A stretch of 64,000 nt of DNA from Simkaniaceae bacterium (GTDB lineage Bacteria; Chlamydiota; Chlamydiia; Chlamydiales; JAJFMI01), in assembly GCA_040880145.1 (NCBI GenBank), contig JBBDIZ010000029.1:1-64000 (forward strand). Reading direction: 5' to 3'. The translations under genes and the position numbers were made by a program. Shown here one piece after another: positions 43,616-43,894 of the stretch (within the stretch, counting starts at the first letter, position 1; every line of letters begins with the position of its first letter). The notes beneath the pieces were generated by a model that was given only the letters and a program-made list of their open reading frames with translations, did no database searches and was not told the DNA's origin.

Positions 43616-43793
43616 TGAGGCCGGAGAGTCGGTTGACATCCTCCCAACTGCTAAAGCAAGTGGAATTCCCTATTCTTACGTTTAGGGTTCCTAATTCTCA
43701 GACCGTAGCTTTCGGTTCCATTAGGAACGGGAAGTCTTACACAGTCTCCAAAGGCTTAACATCCCACGAGCCCCGTGGTAGACCTAAAAAGGT
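43616..43793 (-). ncRNA. TnpB-type omegaRNA/reRNA with flank-derived guide CCGACTCTCCGGCCTCA (guide length assumed)
   Basis: TG-T-TAAACT -10 box at 43800-43808; scaffold homologous to 34515-34651 with compensatory changes. Confidence 0.75.
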
Positions 43794-43894
43794 GAATGTA
43801 GTTTAACAGATTATGGAAAAAACAAAAATACGAAACAAAAATTTAAGACGCTCTCATCCCACCCCTAAAGAGGTGGGTTTTCCCGCGGGCAGTC
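43633..43894 (-). mobile_element. Non-autonomous ORF-less IS200/IS605 element (left end, promoter, omegaRNA, right end)
   Basis: TTAT|GACTGCCCGCGGG-AAAA-CCCACCTCTTTAGGGGTGGG left end; GAAT-hairpin-GGGAGGATG-TCAA right end; no target duplication. Confidence 0.85.

Follow-up and report, generated by a model that had tools for sequence, protein, structure and literature searches.

The window, which is the whole stretch of 64,000 nucleotides analysed, carries on its minus strand a 262-bp protein-less element. This element, taken as a whole, is very probably a PATE that depends on TnpA, belongs to an IS608-like family, bears an omegaRNA scaffold and has spread in trans. The guide module of the element is most likely orphaned in the present organism, and its being in use there is clearly the less probable of the two readings.

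The source genome (1.26 Mb in 40 contigs, 90% complete) contains five full copies of the element. An alignment of these copies with 60-nt flanks reveals that the likeness begins at TTAT/GACTGCC (the slash marks the boundary) and ceases after GGATGTCAA, with GTCAA as the last shared bases, in all five. The coordinates 43633..43894 (262 bp) given in the original prediction are exact, because the boundaries of the five-copy alignment coincide with them, and no copy has other limits or another target, TTAT/...TCAA/ being common to 5/5. The flanks of the five copies are mutually unrelated in the same alignment and contain no target duplication, in agreement with the prediction. On the minus strand, the order of the parts is TTAT, GACTGCCCGCGGG, AAAA, the hairpin CCCACCTC-TTTA-GGGGTGGG, ATGAGAGCGTCTT, a T-rich stretch and a 156-nt structured part, followed by GAAT, the hairpin (T)CCACTTGC-TTTA-GCAGTTGGG, AGGATG, TCAA and the flank CCGACTCTCCGGCCTC. 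The coordinates of these parts, of the other copies and of the related sequences are collected in Table 1.

Table 1. Location of the element, its parts, its copies and related sequences (window numbering unless a contig is named; e, position within the element).
Feature	Location	Strand	Basis or remark
Whole protein-less IS200/IS605 derivative (PATE/MITE), 262 bp	43633..43894	-	five copies, sharp common boundaries
TTAT target / left cleavage tetranucleotide (flank, outside the element)	43895..43898	-	5/5 full copies and 5 same-type left ends
Left terminal segment GACTGCCCGCGGG, 13 nt (e1-13)	43882..43894	-	conserved in all copies and related left ends
Left guide AAAA (e14-17), directly 5' of the hairpin foot	43878..43881	-	covaries with the target
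Left subterminal imperfect palindrome CCCACCTC-TTTA-GGGGTGGG (e18-37)	43858..43877	-	DNA fold
Weak promoter-like TTGTTT-17-CATAAT (e57-85), unconfirmed	43810..43838	-	by eye, sub-threshold 8/12 match
OmegaRNA-type scaffold including the right end (e107-262), 156 nt	43633..43788	-	model R1, 137.9 bits; tnpB 3'-end homology
Scaffold helix 1 (e117-121 with e127-131)	43764..43778	-	5 pairs, 3 compensatory, 94% of cells paired
Scaffold helix 2 (e149-154 with e189-194), encloses an inner hairpin	43701..43746	-	6 pairs, 4 compensatory, 95% paired
Right guide GAAT (e227-230)	43665..43668	-	invariant in 10 aligned scaffolds
Right subterminal imperfect palindrome (C/T)CCACTTGC-TTTA-GCAGTTGGG (e231-252)	43643..43664	-	helix 3
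Right cleavage tetranucleotide TCAA (e259-262)	43633..43636	-	last common bases in 5/5 copies
Putative guide, 16-nt flank CCGACTCTCCGGCCTC	43617..43632	-	position only; if transcribed through the right end
Full copy (the window's copy), 262 bp	C29 43633-43894	-	
Full copy	C21 7381-7642	+	
Full copy	C13 3018-3279	-	
Full copy	C6 995-1257	+	
Full copy	C14 19647-19909	-	
Left end of the 262-bp element, cut by a contig edge	C11:51-1		
Solo right end, 68 bp	C7:14675-14742		
Four left ends at contig edges, TTAT before each	C11:1-51, C2:2-51, C11:36914-36963, C6:48466-48515		stop about 50 nt in
tnpA-bearing IS605-type element, 973 bp, decayed	C23:10335 down to 9363 (L034:940-1912)	-	sole transposase of the family in the assembly
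Copy and co-oriented downstream gene	C14:19081-19909; C6:995-2105; C21:7381-8284		

The predicted absence of a protein gene holds, as no Pfam family is matched inside the 262 bp. The sole open frame, an antisense frame of 56 codons starting at the right-end TTG, is rejected as a gene because stops close it in 9/9 relatives compared. A comparison of the 262-bp element with Rfam yields chance-level matches only, with no family at the gathering score or at E <= 10.

The five copies differ pairwise by 1-7 positions, and their 8 variable sites consist of 7 substitutions and one indel in a T run. None of the 8 sites falls in e100-e230, which is half of the element; this is a hint only, because the region was picked after the data had been seen. 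The window's copy is alone in having a T at 43664, the foot of its right hairpin, where the other four copies and the contigs of the public runs have a C. The word depth of the element core in public-run contigs is 169, versus 28-31 in the flanks (run X1), and 215, versus 32-33 (run X2), an excess that is roughly compatible with about six copies. The summed depth of the left end far exceeds that of the core in these contigs, and the source genome additionally contains several diverged relatives of the element. Neither the donor joint (here TTAT-CCGACTCTCC) nor a circle junction nor an empty-site contig is present in the Logan contigs of four runs, a form of assembly that drops rare forms. Two genomes of the same family contain no match to the 262-bp element and none to the neighbouring EamA protein. 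The orientation of the copies shows no bias relative to GC skew, with 2/5 on the G-rich strand.

Subterminal palindromes are found at both ends of the element in place of terminal inverted repeats. The left end predicted as TTAT/13 nt-AAAA-hairpin and the right end predicted as GAAT-hairpin-TCAA are both present as described; related left ends keep a hairpin at the same position with different stem sequences, and the right hairpin is backed by covariation (helix 3 of the scaffold, below). The distance from TTAT to the left hairpin foot is 17 nt, and the last base of TCAA lies 10 nt from the right hairpin foot, an ending that recurs in tnpB-linked relatives. The stability of the DNA hairpins relative to shuffles is unremarkable (left end, z -0.74; right end, z +0.56), as is the RNA fold of the element (z -0.96), so that the case for the hairpins is comparative and not energetic: single-sequence stability is no better than that of shuffles. 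The right guide, GAAT, is the tetranucleotide that we take to be the right guide of IS608 as well.

In IS608, according to the excerpts of He et al. 2011 (PMC3201880), cleavage and insertion take place 3' of TTAC, a tetranucleotide that precedes the left hairpin foot by 19 nt, and TCAA follows the right hairpin foot at a distance of 10 nt. The four bases 5' of each foot recognise the cleavage sites there, the left guide GL being AAAG, and changes in GL retarget insertion (PMC3201880). In the source genome, 18 left-end-like sites were listed. The GACTGCC-type left ends among them, with AAAA (8) or AAAC (2) as the guide, all lie directly 3' of TTAT (10/10), and the left ends with AAAG (C18:8899, C11:8319 and the element on contig C23) all lie directly 3' of TTAC (3/3). 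The remaining 5/18 sites belong to other left-end types whose boundaries are not fixed, and C9:9106 (TTAT, 12 nt, AAAA) is one of these. The guide thus covaries with the target within this genome, AAAA/AAAC with TTAT and AAAG with TTAC, and in this form the predicted pairing of AAAA with TTAT holds. The two AAAC left ends found at TTAT depart from strict pairing at guide position 4, which reflects either later mutations or a pairing that is not strict at this position; in one case a later mutation is the probable cause, because that copy is 99% identical to the others.

Insertion is strand-specific, 3' of a fixed tetranucleotide and free of target duplication. A generic palindromic repeat of the REP or Correia-like kind, unrelated to IS200/IS605 and resembling transposon ends by coincidence, is scarcely credible as an account of the element, since such asymmetric insertion 3' of TTAT without inverted terminal repeats or duplication argues against it. 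As described below, a tnpA-bearing element moreover has the same ends, and homology links the right half to the 3' ends of tnpB genes.

An intact TnpA of 131 aa is encoded on contig C23 (Pfam Y1_Tnp, 1.5e-39). Its alignment with the TnpA of ISHp608 (2a6m; 1.3e-30) reveals that the H-V-H (HUH) motif and the tyrosine aligned to Y127 are kept. The left end of the surrounding element reads TTAC/GAC..GCGGGAAAG-hairpin-ATGAGAGCGTCT, its interior contains tnpA on the opposite strand, followed by an internally deleted tnpB of which 189 aa remain, and its right end reads GAAT-hairpin-AATAG-TCAA. The tnpA and tnpB genes with the same ends, the search for which had been proposed as a check, are thereby found in part, tnpA being intact in an element with matching ends and tnpB there being a remnant. 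The C23 element and the 262-bp element have in common, around their hairpins, GCGGGAAA and ATGAGAGCGTCT on the left and GAAT, TCAA and the TTTA loop on the right, and because these motifs are shared, the C23 TnpA is the likely mobiliser of the latter. The C23 element differs in having AAAG/TTAC and not AAAA/TTAT and in its left hairpin stem, so that only the shared flanking motifs point to cross-mobilisation. Taken together, the sequence comparisons support the 262-bp element as a complete, non-autonomous IS200/IS605 derivative that would be moved by TnpA in trans.

The predicted omegaRNA scaffold is upheld by homology to tnpB 3' ends and by covariation. In 7/7 tnpB-bearing loci examined, the last tnpB codons and the DNA up to the GTCAA end align, on the tnpB strand, to e114-~250. 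In a closer subfamily (genomes G089, G241 and G399), the whole scaffold aligns, including an extra stem that is absent from the first subfamily. The closest relative comes from G089, whose tnpB 3' end and right end are 69% identical to the element over the whole scaffold, and the corresponding region of G159 likewise aligns. One frame of the scaffold still spells GLPRGSWDVKPLETV up to a stop codon, to be compared with GVPRGSRDFKPVELV and a stop at the C-terminus of the G089 TnpB, and this legible TnpB C-terminal frame indicates that the element corresponds to the parent IS minus nearly all of tnpB (and tnpA). The middle part of the element (e45-110) aligns locally with the C23 element and with the DNA upstream of the G089 tnpB no better than shuffles do, and a left-end pattern scan of the genome contigs yields four stretches only and no full-length parent.

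Two structural alignments were evaluated with RNAalifold. Alignment A1 (11 sequences) contains 34 predicted pairs, of which 15 are compensatory, and alignment A2 (10 sequences) contains 19 pairs, 11 of them compensatory. The paired cells of A2 amount to 94.1%, versus 75.9% in shuffles (0/500 shuffles reach the observed value), and fall to 42-56% when the partners are slid by 1-3 columns. Helix 3, the right-end hairpin, has 8 pairs with 4 compensatory ones, and the inner hairpin of helix 2 has stem sequences that are wholly different in the relatives. TnpA does not require helices 1 and 2, which therefore speak for a constraint at the RNA level, and helix 3 may be constrained as DNA. The constraint on the scaffold may date from a time when the lineage still had tnpB, and for this reason the covariation is no proof that the present copies are used. 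On this comparative evidence, the right part of the element is supported as an omegaRNA-type scaffold with conserved structure, apparently derived from a tnpB 3' end and right end.

Relatives were sought across the order with the tnpB remnant of contig C13 (134 aa) as the query, and TnpB C-terminal homologues are present in 47/301 genomes. A covariance model of the scaffold, R1, was searched at E <= 0.01 in the source genome and at E <= 1e-6 across the order. It gives 15 matches in the source genome, 7 of them full-length (the five copies, the family at 34520-34651 and the C13 remnant), and across the order it matches 28/151 genomes, one of which has 20 matches. Among 29 scaffold matches inspected in loci of other genomes, 21 have at least 250 nt of upstream DNA; tnpB lies just upstream of the scaffold in 9/21 and is not found there in 12/21 (two TnpB queries, E <= 1e-4), a split in which weak scaffold matches may be partial and a divergent tnpB may be missed. 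These counts, tnpB homologues in 47/301 and the scaffold in 28/151 genomes, contrast with the published description of Chlamydiae as 'TnpB-poor'. In G089, contig C9 (L092:2388-2688, minus strand) contains a protein-less element of about 300 bp that reads TTTTTAT/CCCCTGCGCCGT-AAAA-hairpin, followed by a complete scaffold and GGTCAA, and that adjoins a copy in which tnpB is present but interrupted by one in-frame stop.

The window also contains a second, different protein-less element at 34440-34651 (plus strand), whose scaffold occupies 34520-34651 (R1, E 1.2e-40). Its GTCAA end lies 17 nt before a tRNA gene at 34669, and its left end looks degenerate. At 49756-49806 (plus strand), TTAT-GACTGCCCGCGAAAAAACCCATGGTTTTAATCGTGGGCAGTC-ATAA forms a palindrome of about 43 bp that consists of the start of a left end and its reverse complement; it lies 35 nt upstream of a 706-aa ORF at 49841 and may represent a left end reduced to a fold-back remnant.

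In the source genome, tnpB is represented by two remnants only, a C-terminal one of 134 aa and an N-terminal one. PF01385 has no match in this 90%-complete assembly, and PF07282 matches the remnant at C13:4220-3819 (134 aa, 4.6e-24) and two sub-threshold bits. A tblastn search with a 363-aa relative and the G089 TnpB finds only the C13 remnant and a short relic inside elements, and the C13 remnant belongs to a scaffold subfamily other than that of the 262-bp element. A compatible intact TnpB is absent from the assembly, and the guide module is for this reason most likely orphaned in this organism. The original prediction of a parasite that needs both TnpA and TnpB in trans is accordingly borne out for TnpA, which is intact on C23, and not for TnpB.

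The flank beyond the right end would serve as the guide. Each of the five 16-nt 'guides' has one perfect match in the genome, which is its own occupied site, and none has a second target within 1 mismatch elsewhere in the genome. A cognate TnpB would have TTAT as its TAM. That the guide and TAM match the element's own excision junction, a point raised in the original prediction, is true by construction for any IS605 right-end flank and carries no evidential weight. The internal promoter that had been proposed is not recovered, as a sigma-70 promoter scan finds no site within the 262-bp element and the candidate by eye is an 8/12 match.

An active 'guide-only' parasite, in which an intact TnpB encoded in unassembled or unbinned repeats is loaded with the omegaRNAs of these elements and cuts vacated TTAT-flank junctions, whereupon recombination restores the element, is a minority reading that we regard as doubtful, and the same holds for any present use of the guide module. 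The scaffold is complete with its helices intact, the lack of variable sites in e100-230 is suggestive only, being post hoc, and standalone omegaRNAs are reported to work in trans in the excerpts of PMC10691335. An unassembled full-length or tnpB-bearing copy is possible, given the 90% completeness and the left ends at contig edges; four such ends indicate that repeats are unresolved (three of the four are of a variant type), and the excess of left-end depth over the element core points the same way. Against this reading, the tnpB of the assembly consists of remnants only, the one on C13 being of a different scaffold subfamily, the promoter scan gives no call, and the right-hairpin foot of the window's copy is mutated.

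All five copies are intergenic. Three of the five are followed, after 33-60 nt, by the start of a co-oriented gene (one for a secreted-looking protein of 201 aa, one for an oxidoreductase of the SDR type, and ssb), and transcription of these three genes must traverse the element or begin inside it. The genes on either side of the window's copy, one with RDD/GYF domains and one for an EamA transporter, are both oppositely oriented, and an 85-aa ORF that matches no family begins 17 nt downstream of the copy. Such placement may suggest that the copies are co-opted or tolerated as outward-reading promoter or 5'-leader modules for downstream genes, independently of TnpB, and the gap left between copy and gene could not accommodate a promoter and leader in two cases. 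Nevertheless, we consider this explanation improbable: chance alone allows three to four of five when insertions fall between genes arranged in tandem, transcription continuing from co-oriented genes upstream accounts for the placement just as well, and no promoter is called in the element. The position of the copies upstream of genes is compatible with chance or read-through. There is likewise only a slim chance that these mini-transposons multiplied recently in a reduced intracellular genome that has lost every working TnpB. If true, this would imply that the conserved scaffold serves a TnpB-independent job, which might be an action in cis on TnpA transposition, or that of an outward-reading leader or regulatory RNA for the genes directly downstream of 3-4 of the 5 copies.

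The TnpA-dependent PATE with a most likely orphaned guide module suggests the following course of events. A parent IS would have lost tnpA and nearly all of tnpB, leaving about 156 nt of the tnpB 3' end plus the right end. At the left end, AAAA beside the subterminal hairpin would guide a Y1 HUH TnpA to cleave and insert 3' of TTAT, and at the right end it would be guided by GAAT beside the hairpin to cleave after TCAA. Single-strand 'peel-and-paste' transposition would be catalysed in trans by the IS608-like C23 TnpA, with insertion 3' of TTAT leaving the target unduplicated, and would be recent, as the five to six copies differ by 1-7 positions. Transcription through the right end would then yield the scaffold and a 16-nt guide matching the element's own empty site beside a TTAT TAM. 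The copies with their boundaries and target, the covariation of guide and target, the TnpA, and the homology and covariation of the scaffold are observed; mobilisation by the C23 TnpA, transcription and any use of TnpB are the steps of this scheme that we infer.

The element and its relatives show that, in environmental chlamydiae, an IS608-like system of single-strand transposition has been active recently and has protein-less derivatives that carry an omegaRNA. Because 28/151 genomes match and about half of the well-flanked matches are without tnpB, the scaffold family is a usable natural data set on what standalone omegaRNAs do. The pairs AAAA/TTAT and AAAG/TTAC provide an in-genome confirmation of the IS608 guide rule and leave the current understanding of the mechanism unchanged.

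A comparison with IS608 of Helicobacter pylori reveals the same subterminal hairpins, the same TCAA ending 10 nt 3' of the right foot and the same absence of target duplication, and the TTAC/AAAG and TCAA of the C23 element are the tetranucleotides of IS608 itself. The 262-bp element differs in being without tnpA and tnpB, in its left guide/target pair AAAA/TTAT, and in having the left cleavage site 17 nt from the hairpin foot, whereas this distance is 19 nt in IS608. In the C23 element, tnpA is opposite to tnpB, which is the IS605-like arrangement and not the tandem one.

A limited search of the literature on chlamydia together with IS605 or TnpB, at the level of titles and abstract starts, yields no description of such an element, the nearest chlamydial report in these being the IS605 of the Chlamydia suis tet(C) island. 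The novelty attributed to the element in the original prediction is therefore retained as regards a chlamydial host and overstated in other respects, since protein-less omegaRNA elements are in print (Meers 2023; Altae-Tran 2023, each in excerpt). The excerpts of Meers et al. 2023 (PMC10055086) describe, in Geobacillus stearothermophilus, PATE-like elements that code for no protein and have IS605 ends, and state that PATEs 'often encode omegaRNAs' that would need TnpB in trans; a PATE with IStron ends is mentioned in an excerpt of 10.1101/2023.11.20.567912. The 262-bp element resembles these PATEs, as excerpted, in being protein-less, in having the ends of a resident IS605 family and in its presumed mobilisation by TnpA in trans, and it differs in its host, an environmental chlamydia, in that no intact TnpB is assembled, and in a scaffold subfamily that is specific to the order.

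The excerpts of Altae-Tran et al. 2023 (PMC10691335) report that standalone mobilised omegaRNAs without an effector and transposase work in trans, and place Chlamydiae among the TnpB-poor phyla. The present element is likewise a mobilised omegaRNA locus without effector and transposase; in the excerpted cases, effector loci are present in the same genomes and action in trans was demonstrated, whereas here the effector is missing from the assembly. Protein-less omegaRNA-bearing elements are already in print, and it is the host group that is new. In ISDra2, in work attributed to Karvelis et al. of 2021, the guide RNA of TnpB is said to consist of the tnpB 3' end and the right end, with the flank beyond it as the guide, and the TAM reportedly equals the target motif of the transposon. 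By analogy, the 262-bp element would share with the ISDra2 TnpB/omegaRNA system the origin of its scaffold, the use of the flank as a guide and the layout in which the TAM is the target.
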